Below are positions 9,877-60,335 of a stretch of 64,000 nt of DNA, piece by piece; the first letter of the stretch is position 1; every line of letters starts with the position of its first letter. A program made the position numbers and the translations under genes. Origin of the DNA: Candidatus Moraniibacteriota bacterium (GTDB lineage Bacteria; Patescibacteriota; Minisyncoccia; Moranbacterales; JAPLXC01). The notes beneath the pieces were generated by a model. The model did no database searches, had not been told where the DNA came from, and saw only the letters and a program-made list of their open reading frames with translations. The DNA lies in NCBI GenBank assembly GCA_026396275.1, contig JAPLXC010000002.1:74922-138921 (forward strand), given 5' to 3'.

Positions 9877-10034
9877 TTTTTAGCGCCCAAGACGCAAAGC
9901 GGCATATTAACTGTTCACTTTACTAAGATTTGCGGATGTGGTGCCTGCCTGCTTGTCTCGCTAAAGCTATGGAGAAGCGGGCGGTCAGGGAACCCGGTAT
10001 ATTTACCCCGCATCAATTTCTGTGTTCTGAAGAA

Positions 10035-10118
10035 AGGGGACGTGGCGGAATTGGTATACGCGATAGGTTGAGGACCTATGCTCGCAAGAGCGTGAGGGTT
10101 CAAGTCCCTCCGTCCCCA
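10035..10118 (+). tRNA. tRNA-Leu(GAG)
   Basis: Acceptor ggggacg/cgtcccc. Anticodon arm atagg-ttGAGga-cctat. Long variable arm gctcgcaagagcgt. T-arm gaggg-ttcaagt-ccctc. Confidence 0.8.
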
Positions 10119-10282
10119 CACAGGAATTGGTGCGGGGCGCATATGCCCCAGTACTAAGTCCAGGGTGGACTAGTACGGGGTAAACTTGAGGTGCATGTGG
10201 GAGTAATCTCCCTAGAGGTTTTTACCCCGTATTTGGAGCGAAGCGACATAGTTCGGGGCAAATCCTCTCATCCGCACTTGAA

Positions 10283-10470
10283 GGATCCTTAGCTCAGTTG
10301 GTAGAGCGCTTCGCTTATTCACCCCGCACCAAAATTAAGGGCAATTAGCTCAGTTGGCTAGAGCGCTTCGTTTACACCGAAGATGTCGTAGGTTCGAGTC
10401 CTACATTGCCCACTAGAATTTGGTGCGGGGCAAACCGAAGATGTCGTAGGTTCGAGTCCTACAGGATCCA
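10283..10470 (+). pseudogene. interrupted tRNA-like gene 'X' (Val-like body). Its 5' half (10283-10320) and 3' half (10436-10470) have complementary acceptor strands ggatcct/aggatcc and are separated by a 115-nt insert that contains a complete tRNA-Val.
   Basis: 5' half: acceptor, D-arm gctcagttggtagagc, stem cttcg, loop cttattc. 3' half: cgaag, atgtc, T-arm gtagg-ttcgagt-cctac, aggatcc. The insert is bounded by the inverted repeat ccccgcaccaaaatt / aatttggtgcgggg. Confidence 0.55.
10339..10412 (+). tRNA. tRNA-Val(TAC), nested inside the split tRNA-like gene X
   Basis: Acceptor gggcaat/attgccc. Anticodon arm cttcg-ttTACac-cgaag. T-arm gtagg-ttcgagt-cctac. Confidence 0.85.
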
Positions 10471-11100: not shown

Positions 11101-11175
11101 TGCGACCGTAGTACAGTGGCAGTATACGACCTTCCCAAGGTTGAGACGTGGGTTCCCTGCCTGCCATTGCTCCAA
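11101..11175 (+). pseudogene. degenerate tRNA-Gly(CCC)-like copy
   Basis: Has a Gly-like D-arm gtacagtggcagtat and anticodon arm cgacc-ttCCCaa-ggttg, but the T-arm (gtgggttccctgcctg) and the acceptor 3' strand are degenerate. It aligns to the 3' half of the neighbouring split Gly gene. Confidence 0.4.
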
Positions 11176-11177
11176 AT

Positions 11178-11425
11178 GCGGATGTAGTATAGTGGTAGTG
11201 CCCCAGTACTAAACTTGCCTTACGACAAATTAATACGGGGCAGGCATAACCTTCCCAAGCCCCGCACTAAATCTGCACCGCACTTTGTGCGAGAATAGTA
11301 TAGTGGCATTACACTTGCTTCCCAAGCAAGAAACGCGGGTTCAATTCCCGTTTCTCGCTCCGTTATTTGTGCAGATTTTAGTGCGGGGCAAGGTTGAAGC
11401 GTGGGTTCGATTCCCATCATCCGCT
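11178..11425 (+). pseudogene. interrupted tRNA-Gly(CCC)-like gene. The 5' part (11178-11259) and 3' part (11389-11425) have complementary acceptor strands gcggatg/catccgc. It hosts a complete tRNA-Gly(CCC) and also carries an extra 45-nt hairpin insert after the D-arm.
   Basis: 5' part: gcggatg-ta-gtatagtggtagtg ... taacc-ttCCCaa-g. 3' part: caaggttg-aagc-gtggg-ttcgatt-cccat-catccgc-t. The insert is bounded by ccccgcactaaatctgcac / gtgcagattttagtgcgggg, with a 4-bp direct repeat caag at both junctions. Confidence 0.55.
11289..11359 (+). tRNA. tRNA-Gly(CCC), nested inside the split Gly(CCC)-like gene
   Basis: Acceptor gcgagaa/ttctcgc. Anticodon arm cttgc-ttCCCaa-gcaag. T-arm gcggg-ttcaatt-cccgt. 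Confidence 0.85.
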
Positions 11426-11531
11426 CAGGCATTTGGCAGGCGGGGATTCTCATATCCCGCTCAAAGATTCTCTGAAAAATTGGCTTATTTCAACCCCGAA
11501 TATTTTCCTAGAATAAGCCAAATTTAGACCA

Positions 11532-12437: not shown

Positions 12438-12508
12438 GGTCCGGTGGCCGAGAAGTTAGGCAGAGGTCTGCAAAACCTCTTACAGCAGTGCAAATCTGCT
12501 CCGGACCT
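12438..12508 (+). tRNA. tRNA-Cys(GCA)
   Basis: Acceptor ggtccgg/ccggacc with U73 discriminator (the Cys identity element). Anticodon arm gaggt-ctGCAaa-acctc. T-arm agcag-tgcaaat-ctgct. Confidence 0.75.
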
Positions 12509-12533
12509 CAAAATTATAGTATGGTTTGTCCAA

Positions 12534-12621
12534 GCCCGGGTGATGGAATCGGCAGACATGAGGGACTTAAAATCCCTTGGATGAATAATCCGTGCGAGTT
12601 CGAGTCTCGCCCCGGGCACCA
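12534..12621 (+). tRNA. tRNA-Leu(TAA), CCA encoded
   Basis: Acceptor gcccggg/cccgggc. Anticodon arm aggga-ctTAAaa-tccct. Long variable arm. T-arm gcgag-ttcgagt-ctcgc. ACCA at the end. Confidence 0.8.
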
Positions 12622-12626
12622 AAATT

Positions 12627-12931
12627 ATGACCAATTATACAATAATCTCGAAATTCAGAAATAAAGAACAGGTAGAATATCTCACTCGAAAATTAAAAGA
12701 AAAAGGTAATACTTGTTATACACTTTTAAAAGAGACATGAAAGGACTAGAGGATTGTGAAAAAGTTATTATGCTTCTTCCGGGCGGAAACTCCGCACATA
12801 TTGAAGCTGGCATTGCTTATGGAATAGGCAAACCGCTTATATTGATAGGCGAACCAGAAAAACCAGATACTTTGTATCTGATATTTAAAGAGAGATATAA
12901 AACGATAGAGAAATTTTTGAAGAGTATTTAA
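12627..12931 (+). pseudogene. nucleoside 2-deoxyribosyltransferase-like (YtoQ-type) gene fragment, split by a frameshift
   Basis: Frame 1 (12627-12740) reads MTNYTIISKFRNKEQVEYLTRKLKEKGNTCYTLLKET* and an overlapping frame (12713..12931) reads ...LLPGGNSAHIEAGIAYGIGKPLILIGEPE.... Both pieces together are shorter than typical family members. Confidence 0.35.
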
Positions 12932-15038: not shown

Positions 15039-15305
15039 AAATATTCCCCCGCGAATCTACAAATTTTGCTACAAATCTACAGATACTATGATTGTATTAT
15101 ACATTATTTCTGATTTATTCGTACGTTCGTACAGTTTAGTAATTCGCAGAGATTACACTATTTCCCATCCGTTTTCCGCCCCAGCACCATTTTTCAATAA
15201 AGTTATTTCTTAATAATAAGTTTATTGGACAAAACGGCTTCGCCTTTGATTTTTCATAATTGATAATCTGTGCTGAAAATGGTGCGGGGTAAATCTCCAC
15301 AATTT

Positions 15306-16366: not shown

Positions 16367-16720
16367 CTATTCTAATTCTATAAGTATTTTTTCCACCTCG
16401 TCGGCTTTTGATTCGGTTTTGTCGAGTTGGAATTCAATCCGTGGAAGCGGTTTTGTGGAAAGCTTTTTATTAAGAACGCCCTGAAGGCGGTACATTTCTT
16501 TTTTAAGCGTTTCCATAACATAATTAGCTTCGCGCTCGGGGAAAATACTCACGAATATCCGAGTATAGCGGAGATCAGGAGTAGTGTCAACTTTAGCCAC
16601 AGTGACAAAGACCCCGGGCTTGAGGTCAAGTTCCCGGGTTATAATTTCAGCCACCTGGCGCTTAATTAGTTTGTTTATTTTTTCAAGGCGATGAGACATA
16701 AAATTAAATCCAAATTTCAA
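16367..16720 (-). CDS. rbfA: ribosome-binding factor A
   Basis: RbfA KH-like signature ...RQVAEIITRELDLKPGVFVTVAKVDTTPDLRYTRIFVS.... Sits downstream of infB, which is the conserved operon context. Confidence 0.8.
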   Translation of the reverse strand: MKFGFNFMSHRLEKINKLIKRQVAEIITRELDLKPGVFVTVAKVDTTPDLRYTRIFVSIFPEREANYVMETLKKEMYRLQGVLNKKLSTKPLPRIEFQLDKTESKADEVEKILIELE

Positions 16721-16816
16721 AATCCAAATTTCAAATGAATTTAAAAATCCAAATTTTTAAAATTTTTTCATTTGAGTTTGATTTGAAATTTAAACTTTGG
16801 ATTTTGATTTTTTCGG

Positions 16817-19103: not shown

Positions 19104-19346
19104 AACGTTTTTGATAACTAGAGCTTATTTCACGTTAGCATTTATTTCCCCTTGTGTAAAGAAAAAAAGGCAAATGGCGGTTTTTCTAGAACCCGTAAGA
19201 AAGCGGAGGGTACAGGAGTTGAACCCGTAATCCGCTAGGCGGGAAACCGCATTTTCCGCCAAAGGTGGACCAGCCGTTGGCTGGCGAGTTATATAAGCGA
19301 AAGAGGTGAGATTTTCACCCCGCACCTATAAAAATTTTATAAATTT

Positions 19347-19580
19347 GCGGCGGGAGAGGGATTCGAACCCCCGGTACCCTTTCGGATACACCTGATTTCG
19401 AGTTCCCGCACAAAGCGGAAGGAGTGAGATTCGAACTCACGGTCCCGTTTCCGAGACACCGCATTTCGAGTGCGGCCCATTCAACCACTCTGGCATCCTT
19501 CCACTATATGCGGGACGCAGCAGGCCTACGTGTCCCGCACCAATTTTTGGTGCGGGATTCAACCACTCTGGCATCCCGCC
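19347..19580 (-). pseudogene. interrupted tRNA-Ser(CGA)-like outer gene. The 5' piece (19557-19580; acceptor ggcggga plus D-arm) and the 3' piece (19347-19413; anticodon loop, variable arm, T-arm, acceptor tcccgcc) flank the intact tRNA-Ser(CGA).
   Basis: Acceptor strands ggcggga/tcccgcc are complementary. The D-arm is identical to that of the inner Ser gene. The CCCGCACC/GGTGCGGG inverted repeat flanks the insert. Confidence 0.5.
19416..19502 (-). tRNA. tRNA-Ser(CGA)
   Basis: The reverse complement folds as: acceptor ggaagga/tccttcc, D-arm ccagagtggttgaatgg, anticodon arm ccgca-ctCGAaa-tgcgg, long variable arm gtctcggaaacgggacc, T-arm gtgag-ttcgaat-ctcac. Confidence 0.8.
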
Positions 19581-19599
19581 AAAATTTTGGTGCGGGGCG

Positions 19600-19800
19600 G
19601 GCTCACAAAGGGATTGCTCCCTTACGGCTTTTTCTCGACCCCGTAAGAAAGCGAAGGGTATAAGAGTTGAACCTGTGAGGGGATTGCTCCCCAACCGCAT
19701 TTCGAGTGCGGCGCATTAGACCACTCTGCCAACCCCCCGCTTCTCTACGGGGCGAGGCCGCTTCCTTTATTGAATCTCGGCCACTCTTCCAATTATATAA
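19600..19800 (-). repeat. array of further degenerate tRNA-Ser-like fragments (minus strand)
   Basis: A second ccgca-ctCGAaa-tgcgg anticodon arm at 19698-19715; duplicated variable-arm hairpins ggggagcaatcccc / gggagcaatccc; an unusual T-loop ttcaact; and a class-II-like 5' fragment ggaagag-tg-gccgagattc. Confidence 0.4.
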
Positions 19801-19918
19801 TAGCAGATTCAGGATGATCCCGCCTAGTGGGATCATTTTGCCATTTTTGTTTTTTGTTGTAAAATTGATAATATCTGGGAAATAATGATTACCTCTATTT
19901 TTTAAGTGGTGCTAATTT

Positions 19919-21997: not shown

Positions 21998-22609
21998 ATG
22001 AATTTTAAAAAATATTATTTAATAGCGACTGCCAGTGTTATTCTCGCCTTAATTTTTCCTTTTGTTTCTTTAGCCCAATGCAAGGCGGAAGGAAATGTAA
22101 TAGAGTTTTGCAATCCTCTCCGGTTCAACACGGTGCAGGAAGTTTTAGCGAGCTTAATGGCTTCCCTTCAAGGAGTAATTGTAGTCATCTCTATTATTTT
22201 CATAATTATCGGGGCGGTGTTTTACATTACTTCGGGCGGGAGCGAAGATCGGATAAAAACCGCCAAGAAAGCCATTCTTGCCTCAATGATCGGACTAGCT
22301 ATTGGAATTGCGGCACCGACATTCCTAAAGGAAATATCAAGCATCTTAGGATGGACAAATCAGCCACCGGAGTTACAACAGGCGAAAAGCATTGCCGAAA
22401 TAGCTCTTAGTGTCCTGAATTTTCTTCTGGGAATTGTCGGGGCTCTGGCGCTCATTATGATGATAATTGGGGGAATTATGTATCTCACCGCAGCGGGAAA
22501 CGAGGACCGAATTGATGCAGGCAAAAAGATTTTCAAGTTTTCCCTAATTGGAATTGCCGTGGCGCTGGCATCGCTGGTTATTATCAGACAAATTGCCTTG
22601 TTTTTTTAA
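21998..22609 (+). CDS. T4SS-type pilin (TrbC/VirB2-like) with two tandem pilin domains
   Basis: Signal peptide, then two copies of the hydrophobic-YxTxGG(S/N)EDRI(x)AKK-hydrophobic module (FYITSGGSEDRIKTAKKAILASMIGLAIGI and MYLTAAGNEDRIDAGKKIFKFSLIGIAVAL). Confidence 0.6.
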   Translation: MNFKKYYLIATASVILALIFPFVSLAQCKAEGNVIEFCNPLRFNTVQEVLASLMASLQGVIVVISIIFIIIGAVFYITSGGSEDRIKTAKKAILASMIGLAIGIAAPTFLKEISSILGWTNQPPELQQAKSIAEIALSVLNFLLGIVGALALIMMIIGGIMYLTAAGNEDRIDAGKKIFKFSLIGIAVALASLVIIRQIALFF

Positions 22610-22641
22610 TCAATATTTTTTAACGCAAAGAATTTAGACCA

Positions 22642-23097
22642 ATGCTATTCAATGTTCCCCAATTTATTGATGTGGAAGACAAAGTGGCCGGTCCCTTCAC
22701 GGCCAAGCAGCTTCTTTGGATGTTTGGAATGGGCGCGGTACTGCTAGTGCTCTGGAACATACTTGAAAAACCGGCTTTTTTTGTTTCCGCTGTTCCGATA
22801 GTTGCTCTTTTTATGGCTTTGGCTTTTTATCGCCCCTATAACCAGCCACTAATAAGATTTATTCTTTTTTCTTTACTGTTCCTTTTCCGCCCCAAGGTGT
22901 ATGTGTGGAAAAGAATTCCTCATAAAATAGCATCTCAGGCAGGAAAGAAAAAAACGCCTGCTACGATGGAAAAAGAAAAAAAGAAAATGCTCAATCCGGA
23001 AAATATAGAAGCGTTAGCGCGAGTGCTGGACAGCGAGGGCAGGGAACGGAATGAAAAAATTATGGAGATAATAAAGAGAAATCAAAAATCAAAATGA
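22642..23097 (+). CDS. VirB3/PrgI-like small membrane protein of the T4SS-like system
   Basis: 151 aa with two adjacent TM helices after an N-terminal ...FIDVEDKVAGPFTAKQLLWM... segment. Sits immediately upstream of the VirB4 ORFs. Confidence 0.4.
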   Translation: MLFNVPQFIDVEDKVAGPFTAKQLLWMFGMGAVLLVLWNILEKPAFFVSAVPIVALFMALAFYRPYNQPLIRFILFSLLFLFRPKVYVWKRIPHKIASQAGKKKTPATMEKEKKKMLNPENIEALARVLDSEGRERNEKIMEIIKRNQKSK

Positions 23098-23185
23098 AAA
23101 AATCAAGATTCTAAATCAAAATTAAAAAATTTTTAAGTTCTAAGGTCTCTTAATTTCAATTTTTTATCTTTTTGCATTTTGATAT

Positions 23186-23890
23186 TTGATTTTTAATATT
23201 GCTATGGAGTTACTACATTCGAAAAAATTAACCGCCGGGAGTGGAGCCAGCACGCAAAAGTACGTGGACGTTGAAGAGATTAAAAACGGAGTTATCGTTC
23301 TTAAAAACGGGTCTTTGAGGGCCATTCTTTTGGTCTCTTCCATAAATTTCGAGCTTAAGTCCACGGAAGAGCAGGACGCAATCGTCGGCCAATATCAAAA
23401 CTTCCTTAATTCTCTGGATTTCCCTGTTCAGATTATTGTCAGTTCCCGACGGCTCAATATTGGTCCCTATCTGGATTTTTTAGGGGATAAAGAAAGTCAG
23501 CAGACGAATGAATTATTGCGGCTCCAGATTTCCGAATACATAAACTTCATTAAAAATCTCACCGAGGTCTCCAATATAATGTCCAAGTTTTTCTATATCG
23601 TGATCCCCTTTTCTCCAGTGGAAACAAAAGAAGGAGGGCCTTTCCGGAAACTCACTTCAATGTTCAACCCTCGACAGTCAATACTGCGCAAGCGAGAACT
23701 TTTTGAGACATACGAAAACCAGCTGTGGCAAAGAGTGGATCACGTGGTTGCCGGGCTGAGCGGAACAGGAGTAAAAGTTACTCCTCTGGGTACTGAAGAG
23801 GTAATTGAGCTGCTGTATAATTCCTATAATCCAACAATCTATACCAACTCAATCGTCCGGGAGATTGAAAATATTGAACTAGGAAAATAA
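23186..23890 (+). CDS. VirB4/TrbE-like N-terminal domain, encoded as a separate ORF
   Basis: 234 aa ending 4 nt before the ATPase ORF. Together the two ORFs reach the normal VirB4 length (~840 aa). Own RBS (AGGAAA) precedes the downstream ATG. Confidence 0.5.
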   Translation: MIFNIAMELLHSKKLTAGSGASTQKYVDVEEIKNGVIVLKNGSLRAILLVSSINFELKSTEEQDAIVGQYQNFLNSLDFPVQIIVSSRRLNIGPYLDFLGDKESQQTNELLRLQISEYINFIKNLTEVSNIMSKFFYIVIPFSPVETKEGGPFRKLTSMFNPRQSILRKRELFETYENQLWQRVDHVVAGLSGTGVKVTPLGTEEVIELLYNSYNPTIYTNSIVREIENIELGK

Positions 23891-23894
23891 AATT

Positions 23895-25706
23895 ATGTTT
23901 GATCTGGGAAAAAATAAAAAAGAAAAAGACACACTGCTGGAAAGCGAAGAACTTTATCAAGCAGGAGAGGCAACTATTAAGGACTTGATTGCTCCGGCGG
24001 CGGTGAAGATTAATGCCAACTATATCCAAATTGGCGAGACCTACACCCGAACACTTTTTGTCATTACCTACCCCCGTTATCTTCACACTAGCTGGTTTTC
24101 GCCGATTATCAACATTGATTTTCCGCTGGACATCGCCATGTTTATTCATCCGGTTGATACCAACGAAATCCTGAAAACTTTGCGCAAATCCACCACCCGG
24201 GTGCAGTCAGAAATTCACTTGGAGGAAGAAGCCGGAAAAATTCGCGACCCGATTTTGGAAACCGCCCTTCGGGATATTGAGGACTTGCGCGACAAGCTTC
24301 AGCAAGGGACTGAAAAATTCTTTCGATTCGGTCTTTACATGACCGTTTACGGGAAGAGTTATGATGAAGTAAGCAAGATCTGCCAGCAAATTGAGGCCAT
24401 TTTAGAAGCGCAACTGGTTTACGTGAAGCCGGCGGTACTTAAAACCGAACAGGCCTTTTCTTCCACGCTGCCGCTGGCTAACGACGAGCTGGATGTCGGG
24501 AATAATCTCAATACCTCCCCTCTTTCCACCACTTTTCCTTTCGTTTCTTCCGACCTTTCCTCCAATGAAGGAATTCTTTACGGCATCAACCGGCACAACA
24601 ATAGTTTAATTCTTTTTGACCGGTTCAATATGGAGAATGCTAATATGGTGATTTTCGCCAAATCCGGAGCCGGGAAAAGTTATTCCGTGAAACTGGAGGT
24701 GCTGCGCTCGATGATGCTGGGGACAAACGTGATGATTATTGACCCGGAAAACGAATATAAATATCTGTGCGAAACGGTCGGCGGAACCTTTGTTAAAATT
24801 TCTTTGGACTCCCATTTTCACCTCAATCCCTTTGATCTTCCTAAAATCAAAGAAGACGAAGATCCGGAAGGAGTTATCCGCAATACCATCGCTAATATTA
24901 TCGGTCTTCTTCATCTCATGCTCGGATCAGTCACGCCGGAAGAGGATTCAATTTTGGATCGAGCCATTCGAGAGACCTACGCGGTGCGCGACATTACTCC
25001 CCAGAGCAACTTCCAGTCGTTTACTTCCAATTCTTTCCCGACGATGTCCGATCTTTATGAAGTGCTGCGCAATATGGAGGGAGCGGAATCGCTGGCGATG
25101 CGTCTTGAAAAATACACCGAAGGAATTTTTTCCGGCTTTCTCAATAATCCCACCAACGTGAATATTGACAACCAGCTGGTAGTGTTCAACATTCGCGATT
25201 TGGAAGAGGAACTTCGCCCAGTGGCGATGTACGTTGTTTTACAATTCATCTGGAATGAGATGCGTTCGGAGCTAAAGAAGCGTTTAGTAGTAGTGGATGA
25301 GGCCTGGGTAATGATGCAAAATGAAGACGCCGCTTCTTTTATGTTTGGCATTGCCAAAAGGTGCCGCAAGTACTACACGGGACTTACCACTATTACTCAA
25401 GACATTACTGACTTTTTGGCTTCCCGCTACGGAAAGCCGATTGTCACCAACTCCTCGATTCAGTTGCTTCTCCGCCAGTCGCCAGCGGCCATTGAAACAG
25501 TAGTGGAGACGTTTTACCTTACCGATCAGGAGAAATTTCTGCTTTTGGAAAGCAACGTCGGGGAAGGAATATTTTTTGCCGGCACCAAGCATGTGGCGAT
25601 TAAAATCATCGCTTCCTATAGTGAGGATCAGATTATTACTTCCGATCCACGCCAGCTGCTGGAAATAGAGCAAGCCAAAAAAGAATTTGGCGAGGAAAAA
25701 ATGTAG
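23895..25706 (+). CDS. virB4: VirB4/TrbE/CagE-family T4SS ATPase (C-terminal ATPase portion)
   Basis: Walker A IFAKSGAGKSYSVK, Walker B LVVVDEAWVMMQNEDAA, and the TTITQDITDF motif. Confidence 0.85.
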   Translation: MFDLGKNKKEKDTLLESEELYQAGEATIKDLIAPAAVKINANYIQIGETYTRTLFVITYPRYLHTSWFSPIINIDFPLDIAMFIHPVDTNEILKTLRKSTTRVQSEIHLEEEAGKIRDPILETALRDIEDLRDKLQQGTEKFFRFGLYMTVYGKSYDEVSKICQQIEAILEAQLVYVKPAVLKTEQAFSSTLPLANDELDVGNNLNTSPLSTTFPFVSSDLSSNEGILYGINRHNNSLILFDRFNMENANMVIFAKSGAGKSYSVKLEVLRSMMLGTNVMIIDPENEYKYLCETVGGTFVKISLDSHFHLNPFDLPKIKEDEDPEGVIRNTIANIIGLLHLMLGSVTPEEDSILDRAIRETYAVRDITPQSNFQSFTSNSFPTMSDLYEVLRNMEGAESLAMRLEKYTEGIFSGFLNNPTNVNIDNQLVVFNIRDLEEELRPVAMYVVLQFIWNEMRSELKKRLVVVDEAWVMMQNEDAASFMFGIAKRCRKYYTGLTTITQDITDFLASRYGKPIVTNSSIQLLLRQSPAAIETVVETFYLTDQEKFLLLESNVGEGIFFAGTKHVAIKIIASYSEDQIITSDPRQLLEIEQAKKEFGEEKM

Positions 25707-26253: not shown

Positions 26254-26336
26254 TAAATCAAAAATCAAATATCAAAATGCAAAATTTTATCCTTTTTAAA
26301 TTTTGATTTTTACATTTTGATTTTAGCGCAGCGCTT

Positions 26337-36741: not shown

Positions 36742-39700
36742 ATGCTCAAGGAAAAATGCGAAAAAATTTACGGTAAAATAAAAAATTGGGCGATCATTGT
36801 CCGCGATTCTAGCCGGCGCCACTTCCCGCTGGTTTTGGCGATTATTTTTTTGACTCCGGCTTTTATTCTACTTTTTCTTTTTGTTAATTCGCAACTACAT
36901 AAGCAGTCTTCTTACGCGGCCACTTTTACTGGAAAAGTCAAAGTTTCCAAGCAGACAACGACTTTGTCAACCAGCGGGGACTGGTATACTTCCATGGCTC
37001 ATTCCGGCGACGGAGTCAACGGTGACGCGGAATCGGGCACTTTCAATCCAATTCATCCGGGCCAGGGAGCGGGAACCGAGCCGGGAGCTGGCGGAATCGC
37101 TATGGGCCATGTGGCCATGGGAGCAACAACCACTTACGCGGCCGCCCAGTTCATCGGTTTTAAACCAAGCGCCACAGGAAACTTGGACGGGGTCCAGCTG
37201 GTTTTTGAAAATTTGACTTCAACCAATCTTTCCAATGTGGACTTGGTGGTTGAATTTGTTCGTTTTCCCTCAGCGACGTATAGCGGGGGTTGGACCAATT
37301 ATGTGACCGGCACCCAAGGCGCTTATACATATCCTTCCGACACGCAAGTTTTGCGCCGGACGGTCTGGCAGTTCAATCAGGAGCTTTCCGGGGAAAACGC
37401 GGCGCCGGGTCAGTTCGGGCGGGCAACTTTTGACTTTCGCTTTGATCCACCGGTAGCAGTAACAACCGGCGGAGGGGCCGGCGATCATTACGGCATCCGG
37501 ATTATCAACATGGGCGCCAGCACTCCGGTTTTTGGCACTTGGGCGCAAGCGCCTCAGTCCAACGGCTTCCCTTCAATCAACGGCACGATCCGGACAATCG
37601 GCTTCAATGATCTTGATACAACTAACGCCCCAACCGTTACTATGCCAGTGGTTTTGGGAGGAAATACGGTTTTGACAACCGGCGCGATGGTGGCGGCTAA
37701 TTCGGTTCCGGGAATCGGATTGCCGACAGTGCGCAGAACGGAAAACGAACACTGGACAGCCACTTATTCTTCAGCCAATGGAAATTGGACAGTTGCTGGA
37801 TCGGTTTCCGGAACACAAACCAATAAATTAACTACATCCACTAATGGCGGAACCGGCGCCAGCTGGCTCAATGACAGCGCTGTCTATACCACTCTGACCT
37901 CGGACATTACCGGCACAACCAACAAACTTTGCGTGGATTCAATCACCGGTTTTGCGGCCAACCAATATATTGATGTTTGGGACAGCGATACGGCTTCGGC
38001 TCAATTTACTATTCTTTCAGTAAATTCTTCAGACGGCAGTTGTCCGTTAAGCGGACCGTCCATTACTACAACCGCCAACCTGACTAACACCAATAACTAC
38101 ACCCAATCCAAAAACGCCACCGTAGCCAGAACCACCTGGAAGCAAAGAATTATTCAGGGAGCAATCCAGGTCTTTACCCAGGATATGCCCTCAACCACTA
38201 AAATCTGCGTGGCCGATTCAAGCAGATTCAGCGCGCCGACAGCCGGAACAGCCAATAACATCGTGGTTTGGGACAATAACACAACAACAATCAACACCAA
38301 CCGCGTCGTATCCACTTCGCAGGCGGATGGAAGCTGTACCAGCAATAACAGCATTACAATATCAACAGCGATTACTGCCGGAACTTATACTACCGCTCAA
38401 AGCGCTTATGTGGCGGAATATTCGGCTCATCTTTCCAATTCGGCCGCACCGTCCAATGGAGCGGTTTTACGCTGGACGACTTTTAATCATCCGCAAAATC
38501 CAACCAATTCAACTTTGCTGGCGCGGACTACTTCAGTTAATTTGGCTTACGCTAAATCACAGTCGCCGGCCACTTCCAGCACCAACTATCCTTATCTATC
38601 CAACCGCCATATTTTCTTTGTGGCTTATGGCGACGCGGACACGACCGCGCCGGCTGACGGTGATATTGTTATCGTCGGCAACGGCAAATCCGATCCTGAT
38701 TCCGGCGATTCATCCAATTTGACCAGCGACATCAACTGGGCGACCAAGGAATCGCATGTGGTGACGATTGACCGCAGTTGGGACGCGCCGATGGCATATA
38801 GCGGAACCAACGCAGCGGCGGTGGGCGACGGCGCCGGTTCTCGTGCCAACTTTGCCGCCTGGAGCCAGAACGGCGGCTGGGTATCAGCGCTGGTTACTCC
38901 CAGTTCGCAATTGGGGATAGACAACAGCACCAACAAGCATTACCGGATTACCATTCCCGGAAAAATTGTGGTTGACTCGGACGCATCGGTGGCGCTTGGG
39001 AAATCCGGAGCAGCCATTCCGGAAAGTTCTGGCCACGACATATATTTTGACACGGTGAGTCCCGCGGCTTCAACGCTTTTGACTGTTGACTCGGCGGCTA
39101 CTACGACTTTGACCGTAGCTTCCACCACTAATTTTATGCCCGGAGACACGATTGTCTTGGACGATAACAATTCCGTTCCGATAACGAGAATTATCGCGGC
39201 GGTTGAAAATTCTACCACCATAACTTTAACCGCGGCGGCGGTAACCGGCTATACCGTGGCACAGAGCGCATTTATCGCCAAAGGTCCGACCACTGAACTG
39301 CCAACTGGTTCTGATAGAAGAGCCGGGATTTATACAATGACCGGCCTTAACGGAGCATCCACGCCGGCGCAAAGCAATACCCGTACCGGAAGAGTGGCGC
39401 TTTATGCCGACGGTTCGGAAGATTTCAGAACTTCCAAAAGTGATTTGGCAGTGGATGTTGACGGCAATATTGACACTGGATATTTAGGAAATAATTCAAC
39501 TGATGCCGGCAATACCTGGGTGGATGTGGAAGATGATGTAGTTGGCAACTGGCAGCCGCTGGATCAGGTGGCTGTTGCCGGAGGGACCAATCAGCTGGCG
39601 GACAATAATTATTCCTCAACTGAGTTGGGCGGGACGGATGACGCCAACCAGATGCCGGTTTGGACAGGAGCCACAACCAAGGTTGACGCCGGAGCCGGGG

Positions 39701-42700
39701 GCCGAAACGCTCTGCCGACGCCCAATATGGAAGTGGCCGAGATCGGCACGATTCCGATGACCAATATTTATAACAGCGATTATAACGGCGGATCGCCTTT
39801 GTATTCTTCCAATTACAACAATTCGTCCAGTTTGACGATTTTTAATGACGGCGCCAACACGGAAGTGAACGACGCGGTTTATTTTGGTGATCAGGGAAGT
39901 AATATGCCTTATGCTTTGGAATTCAATATTGGAACGGCCATGGTAGCCAGCGCCGATTATGTCTGGGAATACTATAAGTCCGGAGTCGGCTGGACGGAAT
40001 TTACTCCCCGGGACGCATATCTTTATCAAACCAGGACCGGAGTGACGCTTCCTTTGTCAGTGGATACGGTTAATAATTCTCTTGCGATTACTCTGGCAGA
40101 AGGCGGAACAGTTTTTGGGCTGGATCAAATTGTGATGATTGACGACAACGATTCCGATCCGATTTACCGCCGATTGGGAACTTCCGCTCCGACAGCGACC
40201 ACTTTAACTTTTTCTGAACCGGTTCCTTCCGGATATACAGTAGCGCAGGGAGCGACAGTTACGCGTTTGAACGGCGGCCAATGGCAGTCAATGGACCCGA
40301 CTGGAATTTTTACCAGTGGCACCGGCAGAAGGATTATTTCCTGGACACCTACGAACCTAAATGGTACTCCCGCCAAGACAACGGTAAACGGTGTTAGCGC
40401 CTATTGGGTGCGAGCTAGAATTTCCTCTTTTACTTCCTGGACCACTTCGCCAACCAATCAGACAACTCCGGTGGGAATGGGAGGAATAGAAAGAATGTCT
40501 TCAGGCGTGTTTAATGTTTCTTCAGGCGTTCAAGAAGCCAAAGTTTCCGAAGTGACGGCCGGGAGCAGTTTTGATCCCAATGAAACTTATATTTTAGAAT
40601 ACGGCAATTCTCCCAGCTGGACGCAAGTTCTGCCGATTGTGCCTTCGGCGCCGTATACCTGGCATATAAACAGTACCGGCATGTTAAGCCAAAATACGGC
40701 GACGGCTGATTTTCATACGGCTAACGGCGATTTGTCTTGGGGGAATTATACGGTGACAGCCAAAGTGCAGATGAGGACGGCCAATGACGCGACTTCCAGA
40801 AAAATCGGAGTGGTTTTGAGAAATTCGCTGGACGGCAATGGCTATGGAGCTTTAATTGAAAAAACCAGCTCCCAGCAAAGAGTCGGTCTTTATCCGATGG
40901 CTCTGGGCGCGGAAGGTACGGTTTTTGCCAACACTACCAAAGCCTTTTCGGAAAACAGCTGGTATTGGATCAAGGCTAATGTTACCGGCACTGGCGCTTC
41001 CACAGTCTTGAGCGCCAAGTTCTGGGCTGACGGATCAGGTGAACCGGGTAGCTGGGATGTGACTTACACGACCACGGCCGGACAAGGACTTTGGAATACC
41101 GGTAAAATTGGTCTTTTTGCCGACGCGATGATTGCCGATTTTGACGATGTTTCGGTGGACAACGGGTCGGTAGTTTTTTCTGATTCATTTACCAGCACCG
41201 GCACCTGGAAACTTAAAGGTTCTATTAATGGCGATTTGGGAACAATTACTCCCGGAACACCTTTTACCAGCAACTATATTAATTTCACTTTGAAGCATAA
41301 AGGCGGCTGGAATGGAACAATTAATCCGGAAATCGGAGATAAAATTTATATCAGTCCCACTTCAACCAGAAGCTACAAAGGTTTATCCGGAACAGGATCT
41401 TCGGCCATAACTACCAGCGACACGAACACGGTCTATGAAAATGTTGATTTTGAATGGAATCCGGGGAGTAGCAATTACACTGTGACTGGAAGTGCTACCG
41501 GCGCGATGGGAACGGCCACGCCCGGAAGCGCTTACACGGCCACTGGCGGAAAAATCGGTCTGACCATTCCCTCCGGATCTCCGACCGCCACTAAATTCGG
41601 AAACAGAATGCTTTTGCTTCAAGATAATCTGCGCAGAAACACCGGTTCGTGGGTTGGCAACAATGGTTTGGGAAGCGCGGCTTTGGTCTGGCCGTCTTAT
41701 ACCTTAACTTCCAGCGCCATCACGCCCCGCTACAATATTGAAGGTGTTAGCGGAACGGCCACGGCCCGGCAAAACGGCACGATTGATTTTTGGTTCAAGG
41801 CCAATTATTCCGGTTCGCCTTCTTCTGCCACTCATCCCAAGGGAATGTATCTGGTGGATTATGCCAACCAAGGAAATTCGGAACGTCTTTTTATTCGGCA
41901 TACAAACGATGGCTATCTGGAAGCGGCGGTATTTGGAGGAGCGACTCAAAACACATTGCTTCGGAAAAGTTTTTCCGCCACTGCCGGACAGTGGTATCAT
42001 TTCCGTTTGGCCTGGGATGAAACTTTAAATACCAAAAGAGCCTGGCTAGATGAAACAGCTTTCACCTCCGGCGAAGGGCAAGCTTCAACGGTGGGAACCA
42101 GAGGCGCTAATGCCGGAATTATAAGAATTGGAAATACTTGGACTTATGACGCGCCCTTTGATGGATCAATTGACGAGTTTGCTATTTTTGACGATGCGAT
42201 TGACACTTCCGACGCTTGCGATTGGGGAGTATCTGTGGGAATTCCAATTCCCAGCGCGGCCTGGACCAATGGCCAGACAGCCGGATGCGACGACGCGGAC
42301 AGCAACATCGGAACTAATATTTTCCGAGCCAGTTTTGATCAAACTATGAATCCGCAGGAAGGGTCAATTATGGCGGATTACGCTTTTGGCAATCCGGCCA
42401 TGATTTTCACCAACGGAGCTGATACCGGCAATGAAAGAATCAGAATAGTCACCTATCCGCAAAGAACGCGTGTTTGGGTGGACAATACCGGAGAAAAATA
42501 TACGCCTTCAGCCAGAATCAAATTCGGTTCCGGTTATGAAGAAAACGCGACTCTGGCCACGCTGGCCGGCTGGAGCCATAATTACACTTATCATCACAAG
42601 GCGGTCCGACAATCTTCTTCCAGCCCGACTTATTCGCCGGTTCTTAATCTTAAGCGCAATACTCACATCTGGTCGGTGGAACCAATAACGCAAAACGGGG

Positions 42701-51978: not shown

Positions 51979-52977
51979 TCAAGCCCTGAGAAGTTTTGTT
52001 CTTCTTCTCCTCGCATGAAACGCCTGATGCACTTCTTTGAGCTGTTGATTGGTTACATGGGTGTAAATTTGCGTTGTCGTAATAGAAGAATGCCCCAGCA
52101 TCGCCTGGACGCTTCTGATATCGGCACCGCTGGCCAGAAGATCAGTCGCAAAACTGTGGCGCAAAGTGTGGGGATGAACGTCTTTAACAAGACCGGCTTT
52201 GGCAGCGTAAAACTTCACAATTCTTTGGACGGAGCGGGGAGTAATTCTTAGAGAAGAGTCGCTTTTTTTATTGTCATTCCGGACTTGATCCGGAATCTCT
52301 TTAGATCCTGAATCAAGTTCAGGATGACATTTGCGATGGATTTTTTTGGCGATTCGCACGAATAGCGCCGGATCAATATCCATTCTTTTATTTAAATATT
52401 TTTCCAATGCCTTTTTAGCAGTGTCGGAGACAAAAACAATCCGGATTTTTCCTCCTTTACCCCGAACGCTGAATTCCTGTTTGGCCAAATTTATCTGGTC
52501 GCGATTGATGTTCACCAGTTCCGAAACGCGAAGTCCGGCTGAAAAAAGAAGTTCCAAAATCGCCCGGTCGCGCAGCGTTTTCAAATCATCTCCGGAAGCA
52601 CTTTCCAGGAGGCGGTCCAGTTCATCGGCTTCCAGAAACTCAACGGCCTGAACCGGATTTTTTCCCACTTCTATTTTTTCCGGCTGAAGCGCCTCAATGT
52701 CGCGTTTGGCCAGATATTTCAAAAAGTTGCGAAGAGCAATGACATGGTAATTCTGGGTGATTTTTTTAAGTTCTTTACCCTTCTTGTCTTGGTAGCGGTT
52801 AAGACGCAAACGGTATTTTCTCACCAGATCATCCGTGATTTCCCCGGGGCTGGTAACTCCGGCCCAATTCAAAAACCGCTCGAGATAATGCCGGTAGTTT
52901 TCAATCGTTTTAGGGGACCGGCCGCGCTCAATTTCGAGATATTCCAGGAAATCTTTGAGAAGACCGTTTAAATCCAT
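51979..52977 (-). CDS. xerC: tyrosine site-specific recombinase, XerC/XerD-like, carrying an in-frame MITE insertion
   Basis: Core-binding N-domain; catalytic R...HPHTLRHSFAT...LGHSSITTTQIYTHV (Tyr). An extra segment ...CHPELDSGSKEIPDQVRNDNKKSDS... corresponds to MITE copy 4. Confidence 0.8.
   Translation of the reverse strand: MDLNGLLKDFLEYLEIERGRSPKTIENYRHYLERFLNWAGVTSPGEITDDLVRKYRLRLNRYQDKKGKELKKITQNYHVIALRNFLKYLAKRDIEALQPEKIEVGKNPVQAVEFLEADELDRLLESASGDDLKTLRDRAILELLFSAGLRVSELVNINRDQINLAKQEFSVRGKGGKIRIVFVSDTAKKALEKYLNKRMDIDPALFVRIAKKIHRKCHPELDSGSKEIPDQVRNDNKKSDSSLRITPRSVQRIVKFYAAKAGLVKDVHPHTLRHSFATDLLASGADIRSVQAMLGHSSITTTQIYTHVTNQQLKEVHQAFHARRRRTKLLRA
52272..52329. mobile_element. MITE-like element (TGTCATYC...GRATGACA family), copy 4, in-frame inside xerC/D
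   Basis: tgtcattccggacttgatccggaatc...cctgaatcaagttcaggatgaca. Confidence 0.55.
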
Positions 52978-53283
52978 TTTGCCTTAAATCAAAAATCAAA
53001 TATCAAAAATCAAAATTAAGGTATCGCTTTGCGATAGATATTTATTATGGAAAAGTCGTGAGCGTAGCGCCTGCCTGTCGGCAGACAGGAACACCAAAAT
53101 TTTGAATTTTACACTTTGATTTTTAATTTTTTACGTCGTACAACCCAATTGTCACTTTCTAGTGCATTCTATCACAGTCCTGTTCTTAGAGAAAGAGAGA
53201 AAAAAGTCCCGCGCGGGCACTGTATCACCTTTTGCCCTACCTAAGCCGCCAAACAAAAGAAGAAAAACTTGTAAATTTCTCGG

Positions 53284-57476: not shown

Positions 57477-57487
57477 ATTCAAATTAC

Positions 57488-58513: not shown

Positions 58514-58566
58514 CCTAATTTCTAGTTTTTAATTTTAAAAATCCAAATTGTTTCAAAATCCAAATT

Positions 58567-58950: not shown

Positions 58951-59015
58951 TTTTAATATTTGAGCATTTGAAATTGATTTGGAACAATTTGAACTTTGGT
59001 ATTTGGATTTACAAG

Positions 59016-60320: not shown

Positions 60321-60335
60321 AATTATTTTGAAGAA

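Follow-up and report, generated by a model that had tools for sequence, protein, structure and literature searches.

The window, by which we mean the whole 64 kb stretch of Moranbacteria (CPR) DNA that was analysed, carries on its minus strand an intact tRNA-Ser(CGA) gene that lies within the two halves of another gene of the same type (denoted O2); the O2 pair lies in turn within the T-loop of a further gene, O1. Inverted repeats that share the core CCCCGCAC/GTGCGGGG enclose every layer of this Ser locus. Read along the minus strand, the features are:

19835-19863, minus: promoter-like site found by consensus scan ahead of the entire Ser locus, with TTTACA and TG-CAAAAT separated by a 17-nt spacer
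19776-19790, minus: GGAAGAGTGGCCGAG, the O1 5' fragment, covering the acceptor 5' strand and the first part of the D-arm
19739-19752, minus: left inverted repeat CCCCGTAGAGAAGC of the Ser_B cassette, pairs with 19639-19650
19652-19738, minus: Ser_B, a tRNA-Ser(CGA) of the 'type 3' allele (ARAGORN, Rfam, lineage model)
19639-19650, minus: right inverted repeat TTTCTTACGGGG of the Ser_B cassette
19602-19621, minus: O1 variable arm and T-stem 5' strand gggagcaatccctttGTGAG, from the sequence
19581-19597, minus: CCCCGCACCAAAATTTT, the left-hand terminal inverted repeat of the O1 T-loop cassette
19557-19580, minus: O2 5' piece ggcgggatgccagagtggttgaat, acceptor strand GGCGGGA and D arm as far as the D-loop
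19534-19556, minus: cargo-free palindrome CCCGCACC-AAAAATT-GGTGCGGG, a hairpin in the minimum-energy fold
19509-19514, minus: inverted-repeat left arm CCCGCA at the inner gene, pairs with 19405-19410 in the minimum-energy fold
19416-19502, minus: inner tRNA-Ser(CGA), intact (ARAGORN, Rfam tRNA, lineage Ser(CGA) model)
19405-19411, minus: inverted-repeat right arm GTGCGGG at the inner gene (sequence and minimum-energy fold)
19348-19404, minus: O2 3' piece, with CUCGAAA anticodon loop, 3' stem strand, long variable arm, T arm, TCCCGCC and discriminator G
19318-19326, minus: GGTGCGGGG, the right-hand terminal inverted repeat of the O1 T-loop cassette
19297-19317, minus: O1 3' end: T-loop remnant TGAAAAT, T-stem 3' strand CTCAC, acceptor 3' strand CTCTTTC, then GC
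19203-19256, minus: orphan 3' half of another 'type 3' Ser(CGA) allele (gaaaatgcgg...acgggttcaactcctgtaccctccgc), with only weak support from the Ser model (8.5 bits, E 0.065)
19192-19202, minus: second TTTCTTACGGG, after the orphan 3' half

The inner gene scores 56.5 bits on the Rfam tRNA model (gathering score 29 bits) and 105 bits on a lineage Ser(CGA) covariance model built from 41 Moranbacteria genes, and ARAGORN calls it Ser(cga). All its stems are standard and its discriminator is G, so that the criteria for a bacterial tRNA-Ser are satisfied (cloverleaf, long variable arm, 7-nt anticodon loop, G73, above-threshold score). From sequence alone we presume it to be the functional copy.

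An earlier note, made without database searches, had described this intact gene together with an orphan 5' piece sharing its D-arm, an orphan 3' piece running from a ctCGAaa loop through variable arm and T-arm to tcccgcc, complementary orphan acceptor strands and flanking CCCGCACC/GGTGCGGG repeats. All of this held, and we further read the repeats as terminal inverted repeats of inserted units. The O2 5' piece is identical to positions 5-24 of the inner gene (20/20; blastn within the window, E 4e-6), and the O2 acceptor strands are complementary at 7/7 positions. Failure on a Ser covariance model, which the note had named as a possible refutation, did not occur: the Ser(CGA) model gives the O2 3' piece 35.2 bits (E 9e-9), and under the same antisense Rfam family this piece scores similarly to the 3' half of the inner gene. 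Truncated-hit Rfam scans of the fragments gave T-arm matches only, the tRNA model being masked by clan competition, which the lineage model resolved. The note had also proposed reassembling the fragment pairs in silico. Joined O2 pieces are called tRNA-Ser(cga) by ARAGORN at 12 of 440 junction choices, those with defective stems; the outer genes of the metagenome contigs L076 and L130 and of the Gly(CCC) locus described below reassemble easily. O2 lacks the D-stem 3' strand and the anticodon-stem 5' strand and fails the four-stem criterion for a functional tRNA. Because these two strands are missing, we infer that O2 is likely to be a dead shell and not a spliceable gene.

O1, which we read as older, is at least one further outer layer that the earlier note had missed. 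Its 5' fragment matches the start of the intact tRNA-Ser(CGA) in L067, L104, L131 and L137 at 15/15 positions and pairs with CTCTTTC at 19299-19305. The segment at 19602-19621 is a weak match on the Ser model (9.1 bits, E 0.045), with its junction as in L076, and the whole anticodon arm is gone. The GGGG-TGAAAAT-stem-acceptor junction of O1 is also found in L076, in L130 and in an Arg shell in L141.

The earlier note had further reported an upstream array of Ser(CGA)-like fragments with a duplicated variable arm and the T-loop ttcaact. The elements themselves held; the 'array' held only in part and is better described as further shells of one onion, namely O1 and the Ser_B cassette. Ser_B has a mismatched T stem along with that T-loop and scores 41.7 bits on the Rfam model and 82.4 bits on the lineage model; its nearest alleles are in L115, L088 and L056. 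Its state points to a gene that is probably decaying, again by inference. The duplex formed by its flanks (-30.4 kcal/mol) lies past the 1% control level of -27.4, and the variable-arm sequence ggagcaatccc is found again at 19610-19621. The acceptor strand ACCCTCC of the orphan 3' half at 19203-19256 pairs with GGGGGGT at the start of Ser_B. The promoter-like site upstream of the Ser locus is conserved: its motif (tttacaacaaaaa..atgacaaaat) likewise lies 5' of tRNA-Ser(CGA) at related loci.

At minimum energy, positions 19290-19625 fold into a strict nest, in which the O1 T stem encloses a repeat, the O2 acceptor stem, a further repeat and finally the inner cloverleaf (z = -8.4, with 0 of 100 shuffled sequences equally stable).

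Three further nested loci in the window

The same anatomy is shown at three more tRNA loci, all on the plus strand:

9932-10277, plus: nested Leu(GAG) locus, shell from GCGGATG (9932-9938) to CATCCGC (10269-10275)
10006-10023, plus: repeat of the Leu locus
10036-10119, plus: inner tRNA-Leu(GAG)
10120-10137, plus: repeat of the Leu locus
10283-10470, plus: nested Val locus, outer 5' part at 10283-10317
10322-10336, plus: repeat of the Val locus
10339-10413, plus: inner tRNA-Val(TAC)
10417-10430, plus: repeat of the Val locus
10431-10470, plus: outer Val 3' part
11178-11426, plus: nested Gly locus, outer 5' part at 11178-11199
11200-11241, plus: hairpin insert in outer Gly
11242-11259, plus: outer Gly anticodon arm
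11260-11278, plus: repeat of the Gly locus
11289-11361, plus: inner tRNA-Gly(CCC)
11369-11388, plus: repeat of the Gly locus
11389-11426, plus: outer Gly 3' part

Inner and outer genes share the anticodon at each of the four nested loci (Ser, Val, Gly and Leu(GAG)). The earlier note had claimed such sharing for three clusters. The sharing held and the Val and Gly loci are present, but the count is corrected to four, the Leu(GAG) locus having been missed.

The outer genes differ in what is left of them. At the Val locus the 3' parts of shell and inner gene match at 30/30 nt, and the acceptor stems differ; the fold is the same type of nest (z = -4.6), and at the predicted junction an asymmetric 8/5-nt internal loop separates the 5-bp anticodon stem from the repeat helix. 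No junction choice in in silico joining restores the TAC anticodon of outer Val. Removal of both inserts from outer Gly in silico yields a tRNA-Gly(ccc) call. CAAG is duplicated at the junctions of this locus, and a perfect anticodon arm returns when the element and one CAAG are taken out. The Leu outer shell has hairpin inserts in its D- and T-loops and is without the D-stem 3' and anticodon-stem 5' strands; its 18-bp repeat contains two mismatches, both of them U-G pairs on the tRNA strand.

A palindromic repeat family and its occurrence in other genomes

The repeats form a family. The 8-mer CCCCGCAC is present 8 times in the window against 1.1 expected, a number reached in 0 of 100 shuffles. 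Inverted repeats of the form CCCCR..YGGGG and at least 9 bp long number five in the 64 kb, and four of the five enclose a tRNA (Leu, Val, Gly, Ser). Termini with CCCCGCAC are found at five elements of the window, which meet the terminal-inverted-repeat criterion for a MITE; four contain a tRNA and the remaining one does not:

15179-15289, minus: cargo-free family member TTTA-CCCCGCACCATTTT ... AAAATGGTGCTGGGG, 111 nt, intergenic, no tRNA inside

Together with this element, cargo-free members lie at non-tRNA sites and in other tRNA shells in L001, L002, L049, L123, L128, L141 and L264. In about 14 of 16 family members (manual count), CCCCG on one strand is immediately preceded by TTTA or TTCA, and the inner genes are all co-oriented with their shells, irrespective of which end of the element has this TTYA tag. 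Family copies are of low density in the window and concentrated at tRNA loci. Strong tRNA-flanking stems are essentially limited to the window loci, L076, L130 and L141; only 10 of 246 tRNAs (143 sequences) lie past the 1% control level, mostly cassettes, and the idea of processing stems flanking tRNAs throughout the lineage was rejected on this count.

The Ser cassette recurs elsewhere. L076 and L130, two unrelated contigs from another metagenome project, carry this cassette in the orthologous gene, inserted at the identical point of the T-loop. A 14-mer of the cassette repeat (CCCCGCACCAAAAT) is identical in the window and both contigs, the trailer (AATTTAT..) is homologous, and the T-loop junction is identical to the base in the Ser shells of the three genomes and in the Arg shell. 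Apart from the T-loop insert, L076 and L130 have complete outer genes, which are readily called tRNA-Ser(cga) after in silico joining. Acceptor and T stems are still paired in the outer shells of both contigs and of the window, with compensatory differences between the genomes. In L130, as at the Val locus, the outer gene equals the inner gene except in the acceptor stems. L141 shows the nested architecture with other repeats.

Presence and absence of the insert differ between relatives. L067 has the un-split version of the L076 outer gene, with an intact T-loop (TTCGAAT), and in L076 that gene contains the insert. Upstream of its gene, L067 further shows an older shell and a repeat, both decayed. 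L074/L078 and L075/L069, close relatives of L076 (DUF4446 distance 0.13-0.17, as for L067), hold the cassette-type allele only. L123 and L128 carry different family members at the same site, both between TTTA flanks. The filled/empty-site criterion is met for L067 versus L076 and for L123 versus L128, the junction bases giving no clean insertion. Target-site duplications are inconsistent: CAAG at Gly and TTTA at L123/L128, with none at the T-loop, Val or Leu junctions. Each allele type stacked in the window is the sole gene at this locus in some other sequence.

Other relatives show other arrangements, among them L263-L265, the nearest retrievable ones. From the T arm onward the DNA of L264 and L265 is identical, but the gene is Ser(CGA) in L264 and Ser(GGA) in L265. 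In L029, L087, L091 and L070 a repeat of the tRNA 3' end lies 100-190 nt beyond an intact tRNA, and at many related loci a lone 5' or 3' fragment lies beside an intact tRNA with the CCCCGCAC repeat absent. Across the sequences examined, a partial copy lies no more than 400 nt from about 50 of the 249 tRNAs. In L046 a larger element with a serine recombinase is integrated at this locus. Its repeat-bounded segment was considered as the site of a transposase and rejected, as its two ORFs match no Pfam family; the ORF just upstream of the segment is a large serine recombinase and belongs to the larger, different element. The comparison set has no strain-level relative of the window genome: a search with the DUF4446 protein found an identical protein in one NCBI Moranbacteria MAG only, the next best being at most 77% identical, and exact look-ups of three window proteins returned no record.

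Machinery for movement was not found in the 64 kb. The inserts of 100-280 nt contain no ORF, and the scanned window ORFs near the loci are housekeeping genes, without a transposase, recombinase or nuclease linked to the elements; the sole recombinase noted in the window is a Xer-like tyrosine recombinase 32 kb away (51979-52977). Excised circles would be expected to leave GGTGCGGGG joined to CCCCGCACC over a short spacer; a search of all loci for CGGGG-N3-10-CCCCG, the mark of a circle junction or head-to-tail element, gave nothing informative. No identical cassette copy was found at two unrelated sites in the sequences compared, and for that reason movement is only inferred.

Proposed serial insertion and its rivals

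With moderate confidence, and well ahead of its rivals, we favour a model in which palindrome-ended, non-autonomous units inserted one after another into tRNA-gene loops, each bringing a replacement tRNA. Observed directly, and in its favour, are the anatomy of the loci, the repeat family, its recurrence in other genomes and the presence/absence differences between relatives. That the units move, in what order they arrived, how selection kept them and how the RNA is processed are inferred from sequence alone. A small unit with CCCCGCAC...GTGCGGGG ends and a full tRNA-Ser(CGA) as cargo would insert co-directionally into the resident gene, at a position that encodes a loop. Once split, the resident would die and remain as two complementary half-gene shells, while the cargo tRNA would take over, its transcription driven by the resident promoter. 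At least two serial events would be needed at the Ser locus: a cassette carrying O2 would have split O1 in the T-loop, and a later unit with the present intact gene would have split O2 between the D-loop and the anticodon loop. The Ser_B cassette would have entered the region of O1 from the D arm to the variable arm, and the dead shells may afterwards have gathered more cargo-free palindromes. In the long precursor the repeat stems would clamp the inner tRNA, so that it folds separately from the homologous shell, and may be cut by a double-strand RNase ahead of RNase P and 3' processing. The shared anticodon of outer and inner genes would arise because insertion into a needed tRNA gene survives only with a working copy; homology possibly helps. 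The absence of a linked enzyme, the inconsistent target-site duplications, the lack of an identical cassette at two unrelated sites and of a strain-level relative all count against this reading, and two further observations sit uneasily with it. Paired shell stems with compensatory differences are unexpected in long-dead DNA unless the insertions were recent and independent, and the outer/inner identity in Val and L130 is not predicted by plain import of foreign cassettes and would need later gene conversion.

The strongest rival, which we nevertheless regard as unlikely, is allele replacement by recombination without a mobile cassette. Foreign tRNA alleles taken up as DNA would be patched in through one homologous and one illegitimate joint, the tRNA genes being the sole stretches similar enough between diverged genomes to anchor exchange; partial duplicates of the same anticodon type would be left behind, and the inverted repeats would be RNA-processing or insulating stems selected later, or hairpins marking break points. 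In its favour, whole alleles were swapped without the repeat among close relatives (L074 versus L075 versus L067), L264 and L265 switch isoacceptor next to identical DNA, lone fragments without the CCCCGCAC repeat are common, the identical outer and inner bodies of Val and L130 would be homologous exchange between copies, and on the transcribed strand both mismatches of the Leu repeat form G-U pairs. Against it stand the same repeat termini at four tRNA species in one genome, and at the Ser cassette in two others, the cargo-free members at non-tRNA sites and the base-exact T-loop junction in the Ser shells of three genomes and the Arg shell; stems selected purely for RNA folding need no conserved sequence. 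It is far less probable that the outer genes still function, the insert being excised from the RNA and the outer halves ligated or used as a two-piece tRNA, to give two tRNAs per nested gene. Support comes from the L076/L130 outer genes, which are called tRNA-Ser(cga) once the insert is removed, from the outer Gly(CCC) anticodon arm, perfect after removal of the element and one CAAG, and from the paired shell stems with their compensatory differences in a precursor that folds as a clean nest. However, O2 and outer Leu lack two stem strands, outer Val regains no TAC anticodon at any junction choice, O1 has no anticodon arm, and the T-loop after excision would read UGAAAAU, without the U55 and C56 required by the tRNA elbow. 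Archaeal-type splicing was rejected, since no fitting bulge-helix-bulge (two 3-nt bulges 4 bp apart at the exon-intron junctions) was found at the Ser, Val, Gly or Leu junctions by inspection and from the Val fold; no EndA splicing endonuclease or ligase is among the scanned ORFs, which cover 64 kb only, and to our knowledge no bacterial enzyme performs such tRNA splicing. Group I/II introns were rejected as well: the Rfam scan of the window at gathering threshold returned 14 tRNAs only, no intron family came up when the locus was scanned permissively, and the intron mode of ARAGORN (introns up to 300 nt) left the outer genes uncalled.

Classical integrase scars are similarly improbable. Here phages or islands in tRNA-Ser, each with a partial tRNA copy, would later have been almost entirely deleted to leave att-type duplicates. 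tRNA loops with symmetric flanking stems are indeed the classical targets of integrases (Islander, PMC4383910; PMC1762012), the L046 element occupies this very locus, 3'-end repeats follow the intact tRNA in the four sequences named above, and the layout of the junction, a 9-bp arm followed by 7 nt and a 5-bp stem strand, is similar to a recombinase core site. Such a history predicts direct repeats of one tRNA part around an element with an integrase gene, whereas we observe complementary halves of a different allele, an insert of 100-280 nt, a whole tRNA and inverted-repeat ends; moreover, four loci would each need near-total deletion ending exactly at the repeats. A phage origin of the repeat was rejected: CCCCGCACCAAAAT gave 120 single hits in viral contigs, only one of them with GTGCGGG within 450 nt, and that one not a paired element, so that we ascribe the hits to chance. 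The repeat is similar to the Haemophilus uptake sequence, but its clustering at tRNA loci, and not scattered over the window, speaks against a DNA-uptake signal. An assembly artefact, in which a metagenome assembler concatenated or collapsed strain variants of the tRNA-Ser locus, had been raised in the earlier note as a possible refutation and can be set aside almost entirely. The region is repeat-rich, contig L263 ends here, 87 nt short of the neighbouring gene, and L265 may contain an assembler switch at a shared 28-nt tRNA end. We argue against an artefact because the independent assemblies L076 and L130 share the cassette, with identical repeat and junction, and relatives are un-split (L067) or have the cassette-type allele only (L074). 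The nested architecture also exists with other repeats in L141, one rule holds at four window loci, junctions lie at inverted repeats and not at sequence shared between copies, and the acceptor halves of a shell match each other and not the neighbouring copy.

Serial insertion, our preferred reading, admits a bolder form that we consider no more than possible: the units may be an undescribed selfish element, a miniature mobile cassette with a tRNA gene as its only cargo. Such a cassette would invade loop-coding positions of its cognate tRNA gene, destroy the gene and so become indispensable. Differences between the acceptor stems of cargo and shell would block the recombinational return of the old gene, and repeated invasions would drive the turnover of tRNA alleles among Moranbacteria and build Russian-doll genes. 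We found no published description of such a nested tRNA arrangement in the literature searched. If the cassettes are truly mobile and self-enforcing, they would be a new type of selfish gene.

Comparison with known systems

If serial insertion is true, bacteria with very small genomes replace essential RNA genes by means of a tiny splitting cassette, and the leftover layers record the history. Palindromic elements that prefer tRNA loops in the CPR may explain the frequent tRNA fragments and pseudo-tRNAs beside tRNA genes. For annotation, tRNA finders report decaying copies such as Ser_B as genes and overlook shells. The loci would also be a bacterial, DNA-level counterpart to the debate over the origin of split and intron-containing tRNA genes.

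Islander islands and prophages integrate into tRNA genes and restore them (PMC4383910), and tRNA fragments are left (PMC9897764). The nested loci resemble them in that a tRNA gene is split, the insert keeps a working tRNA, a displaced fragment marks the end, and the targets are anticodon loops or T-loops. They differ in that the cassette is only 100-280 nt, without an integrase, has a complete tRNA as cargo and terminates in inverted repeats; the old gene, displaced in both its halves, is not rebuilt, and events are nested and not side by side.

REPs are tagged palindromes with a GTAG or CGTC head that are thought to be moved by RAYT transposases (PMC3733652); MITEs (PMC3184786) are also comparable. 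Like REPs, the repeats described here are short, G+C-rich palindromes with a conserved unpaired tetranucleotide (TTTA or TTCA before CCCCG), and like REPs and MITEs they have diverged sub-families and paired or longer-stem copies, some within genes, that are probably transcribed into RNA hairpins. Unlike REPs and MITEs, they have other head and palindrome sequences, a low copy number in the window and a concentration at tRNA genes, and no RAYT or other transposase was found in the 64 kb. REPs or MITEs are not known to hold a tRNA gene in the loop or to be regularly sited in tRNA loops.

Group I introns of the same phylum likewise interrupt tRNA genes (in the anticodon loop) and are missed by standard annotation, but they are self-splicing ribozymes of a few hundred nt, whereas the inserts described here consist of a repeat stem and a tRNA. 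Archaeal disrupted tRNA genes comprise introns at many positions, split genes and permuted genes (reviewed in PMC4390854 and PMC4033280), and at the Caldiarchaeum tRNA-Thr locus a mobile element left a 5' fragment beside the replacement gene (PMC3293823). The likeness lies in breaks at loop positions, complementary sequences that join the halves, a proposed mobile element and allele differences within populations. However, the archaeal copies are rescued as RNA by a splicing endonuclease acting at a bulge-helix-bulge, whereas the bacterial shells described here are without this motif and appear dead, and the DNA that intervenes in them is another tRNA of the same kind.

Layers of the nested tRNA-Ser locus

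The elements described for this locus in the earlier note, an intact tRNA-Ser(CGA) lying between two orphan pieces of a Ser(CGA)-like gene with further Ser-derived fragments upstream, were all found on the minus strand. The nested reading held, and more layers are present than had been noted (O1, the Ser_B cassette and the half at 19203-19256).

Features of the tRNA-Ser locus (window coordinates)
19416-19502, minus strand: intact inner tRNA-Ser(CGA)
19557-19580, minus strand: 5′ piece of O2, the split Ser(CGA) gene (shell) around the inner gene, ggcgggatgccagagtggttgaat; 20/20 identity with the D-arm region of the inner gene
19348-19404, minus strand: 3′ piece of O2; CUCGAAA loop, long variable arm, T arm, tcccgcc, discriminator G
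19581-19597 and 19318-19326: repeats immediately flanking O2, CCCCGCACCAAAATTTT and GGTGCGGGG
19776-19790, 19602-19621 and 19297-19317: remnants of O1, the outermost Ser shell
19652-19738: Ser_B, a weaker tRNA-Ser(CGA)
19203-19256: additional orphan 3′ half, related to Ser_B
19534-19556: bare palindrome, 8-bp arms, 7-nt spacer

ARAGORN and Rfam both detect the inner gene (56.5 bits against Rfam) and Ser_B (41.7 bits against Rfam). With a covariance model trained on 41 distinct Moranbacteria tRNA-Ser(CGA) genes, the inner gene scored 105 bits, Ser_B 82.4 bits (its T stem has non-standard pairs), the O2 3′ piece 35.2 bits (E 9e-9) and the remaining Ser fragments 8-14 bits. Failure of the fragments to match a Ser model would have refuted the nested reading; since they score on this model, it is not refuted on that count. 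The acceptor strands of the two O2 pieces are complementary at 7/7 positions, and CCCCGCAC occurs eight times in the window (1.1 expected).

Beyond the repeats flanking O2 lie GTGAG-cccg on the left and TGAAAAT-CTCAC-CTCTTTC-GC on the right, which are both T-stem strands and the acceptor 3′ strand of O1. The acceptor 5′ partner, GGAAGAGTGGCCGAG (19776-19790), directly follows a promoter-like site. O1 lacks D and anticodon arms, which are replaced by a second repeat-bounded unit, CCCCGTAGAGAAGC - Ser_B - TTTCTTACGGGG. The predicted RNA fold of 19290-19625 is a strict nest (z = -8.4) in which the O1 T stem encloses a repeat, followed inwards by the O2 acceptor stem, a short repeat and finally the inner cloverleaf.

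Housekeeping genes surround the locus (IF-2, RbfA, DHH phosphoesterase, endonuclease IV, ribosomal protein L19 and CCA-adding enzyme). The nearest IF-2 sequences (≤ 72% identity) come from Candidatus Moranbacteria (Moraniibacteriota, Patescibacteria/CPR), and the adjoining DUF4446 protein is identical to one from an NCBI Moranbacteria MAG. Elsewhere in the window, a 4152-aa ORF (36742-49200) occupies a block of higher G+C (0.44-0.51 versus ∼ 0.40). Two type-IV-secretion-like gene groups (21998-25706, 55491-60818) contain pilin-like ORFs, a putative VirB4-like ATPase (assigned from sequence, no domain scan) and a weak TrbL/VirB6-like match under the Pfam cut-off. An ORF at 58567-58950 belongs to the 23S-rRNA-intervening-sequence protein family, and an AT-rich motif, AAATCAAAAATCAAA(T), forms inverted pairs in several intergenic regions (16706-16812, 23079-23201, 26255-26324, 52986-53129). 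tRNA-Cys(GCA) (12438-12509) has an unusual T-loop, GTGCAAATC, yet reaches 55.6 bits with the Rfam tRNA model.

Other nested loci and the state of the outer genes

Inverted repeats of 12-20 bp, with the same CCCCGCA core as at the Ser locus, bracket tRNA-Val(TAC), tRNA-Gly(CCC) and tRNA-Leu(GAG), each within a split gene of the same anticodon and orientation. The earlier claim that outer and inner genes share one isoacceptor type thus held at every nested locus, including Leu(GAG), which it had not listed. At this fourth locus (9932-10277), tRNA-Leu(GAG) with 18-bp flanking repeats lies inside a Leu(GAG) shell that carries extra hairpin inserts in the D-loop (9944 to ∼ 9990) and T-loop (∼ 10222-10259). 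The 64 kb contain just five CCCCR..YGGGG inverted repeats of 9 bp or longer, of which four enclose a tRNA; the tRNA-free member is intergenic (15179-15289). All insertion points are at loop-coding positions: the anticodon loop in Val and Gly, and the T-loop in O1 and outer Leu; O2 and, at a second site, outer Leu are interrupted from D-loop to anticodon loop and have lost the segment in between.

Upstream of nested Gly, a further degenerate copy resembling tRNA-Gly(CCC) (11102-11174) has unpaired acceptor strands, and ARAGORN calls it only when the threshold is lowered; two relatives (L001, L025) have no Gly(CCC) anywhere in this tRNA cluster. The left repeat CCCCGCACCAAAAT (10322-10335, 19584-19597) resembles the 3′ end of a tRNA whose CCA is encoded, followed by a trailer. 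The tRNA-Leu(TAA) 3′ end (12605-12631) reads CCCCGGGCACCAAAATTATG; this may reflect derivation or chance.

The outer tRNA-Gly(CCC) became callable again after in silico removal of its inserts. Joining O2 gave a defective Ser(CGA) call in 12 of 440 junction choices, and no junction choice for outer Val gave the TAC anticodon. O2 and outer Leu miss two stem strands, O1 has no anticodon arm, and neither a bulge-helix-bulge motif at the shell junctions nor a group I or group II intron match was found. We conclude that the window's shells are dead genes.

Related loci in other genomes

We compared 62 IF-2 loci from species-representative genomes and 80 DUF4446 loci from metagenomes (L-numbers). In many Moranbacteria this position holds just one simple tRNA-Ser(CGA) gene (e.g. 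L005, L020, L023, L056). In L076 and L130, two contigs from another project, the T-loop of a complete outer tRNA-Ser(CGA) is interrupted by a cassette consisting of CCCCGCACCAAAAT, a spacer, an intact tRNA-Ser(CGA), a trailer (AATTTAT..) and TTTTGGTGCGGGG; TGAAAAT and the remainder of the outer gene follow. Repeat and junction are those of O1, which argues strongly against an assembly artefact. The close relatives of L076 diverge at this single locus: L067 has an un-split ortholog of L076's outer gene with an older, decayed shell in front of it, the sole allele of L074/L078 resembles the inner gene, and L075/L069 have a different allele again. Three allele types are stacked in the window, each of which is elsewhere the sole gene. 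In L141 a tRNA-Arg shell has three inserts, among them an intact tRNA-Arg bounded by different repeats and a bare T-loop hairpin followed by TGAAAAT as in the Ser shells. Among the 249 tRNAs of the examined sequences, ∼ 50 have a partial self-copy within 400 nt; strong flanking stems, by contrast, are essentially limited to the cassettes. The nested tRNA feature is real and recurrent in this lineage, and the earlier interpretation of the Ser locus gains support and is extended.

Palindromes that have CCCCG...CGGGG ends but no cargo occur at scattered points in related loci, and almost all have TTTA or TTCA in front of them on one strand; L123 and L128 have different family members at one site, with TTTA flanks.

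Further features were observed near tRNA-Ser. A conserved ∼ 95-nt element (a variable-sequence hairpin, GGGTYNCAAAAGNRACCC and, in most of five loci, CAGTTTTTT) lies between a 19-nt tRNA-Ser 5′ fragment and intact tRNA-Ser(CGA). In four loci, an antisense Ser-like fragment (GATTCGAA .. CCAGATTTCGAGTCGG) lies downstream of tRNA-Ser(CGA), and beyond it the tRNA 3′ end is repeated in sense orientation.

Loci with these features
∼ 95-nt element: L007 7860-7970; L080 9560-9674; L095 5050-5272; L131 1084-1192; L264 2553-2660
Antisense Ser-like fragment: L080 9763-9890; L087 9699-9815; L091 215-330; L070 191-400

The tRNA-Ser/DUF4446 site also takes in larger elements: in L046 (596-6144) the gene for a large serine recombinase adjoins a 3.4-kb segment that has 149-nt inverted copies at its ends, immediately upstream of the DUF4446 gene. 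L264 (2661-2749) and L265 (188-278) have the same DUF4446 protein, and their DNA is identical starting at the tRNA T arm, but they carry tRNA-Ser(CGA) and tRNA-Ser(GGA), respectively, in different upstream contexts; this reflects either recombination or a switch made by the assembler at the common 28-nt 3′ end.

Origin of the nested arrangement

With moderate confidence we favour insertion of palindromic elements as the likeliest mechanism; the enzyme is unknown. Small non-autonomous palindromic elements would insert at loop-coding positions of tRNA genes, and an insertion into a needed gene would survive only if it brought a working copy (cargo) of the same anticodon, oriented to use the resident promoter. 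The split gene would decay and gather more palindromes, and a later hit on the cargo gene itself would build up the nest. Repeat stems would keep the inner tRNA apart from the homologous shell in a long precursor and might serve as substrate for a double-strand RNase. Since shell and cargo acceptor stems differ, we infer that recombination between them would yield a mismatched, useless tRNA, stabilizing the arrangement. The identical shell and cargo bodies in Val and L130 are best explained, we infer, by gene conversion halting at the heterologous ends.

Allele patching driven by recombination, without any mobile unit, is a serious, though less likely, alternative. It accounts for the allele swaps and identical bodies, but leaves unexplained the cargo-free copies and the termini that four tRNA species have in common. 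That the outer genes are alive and spliced at the RNA level is unlikely, given the defective joins and the absence of intron or bulge-helix-bulge signatures at the shells. Misassembly is improbable in view of the independent contigs. We likewise doubt that the shells are scars of classical integrase events, although islands do integrate into tRNA genes (PMC4383910) and such events leave tRNA fragments (PMC9897764). The only recombinase seen in the window, Xer-like and of the tyrosine type (51979-52977, minus strand; Phage_integrase and SAM-like N-terminal domains), lies 32 kb from the Ser locus and has no demonstrated tie to the palindromic elements. No enzyme linked to these elements was found, and a scan of viral contigs for related elements returned nothing related.

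tRNA genes nested in cognate tRNA genes via repeat-bounded mini-cassettes were undescribed in the literature searched, whose coverage was incomplete, so that absence is not proof. The kinds that the feature falls under, tRNA-targeting insertions and palindromic mini-elements, are known. Patescibacteria tRNAs contain group I introns (PMC13011429), and disruption of an archaeal tRNA by a mobile element has been proposed (PMC3293823). The palindromes resemble tagged REP families (PMC3733652) in that a G+C-rich palindrome carries a conserved tetranucleotide at its head; the geometry of the T-loop junction (9-bp arm, 7 nt, stem strand) is, by contrast, reminiscent of the core site of a site-specific recombinase.
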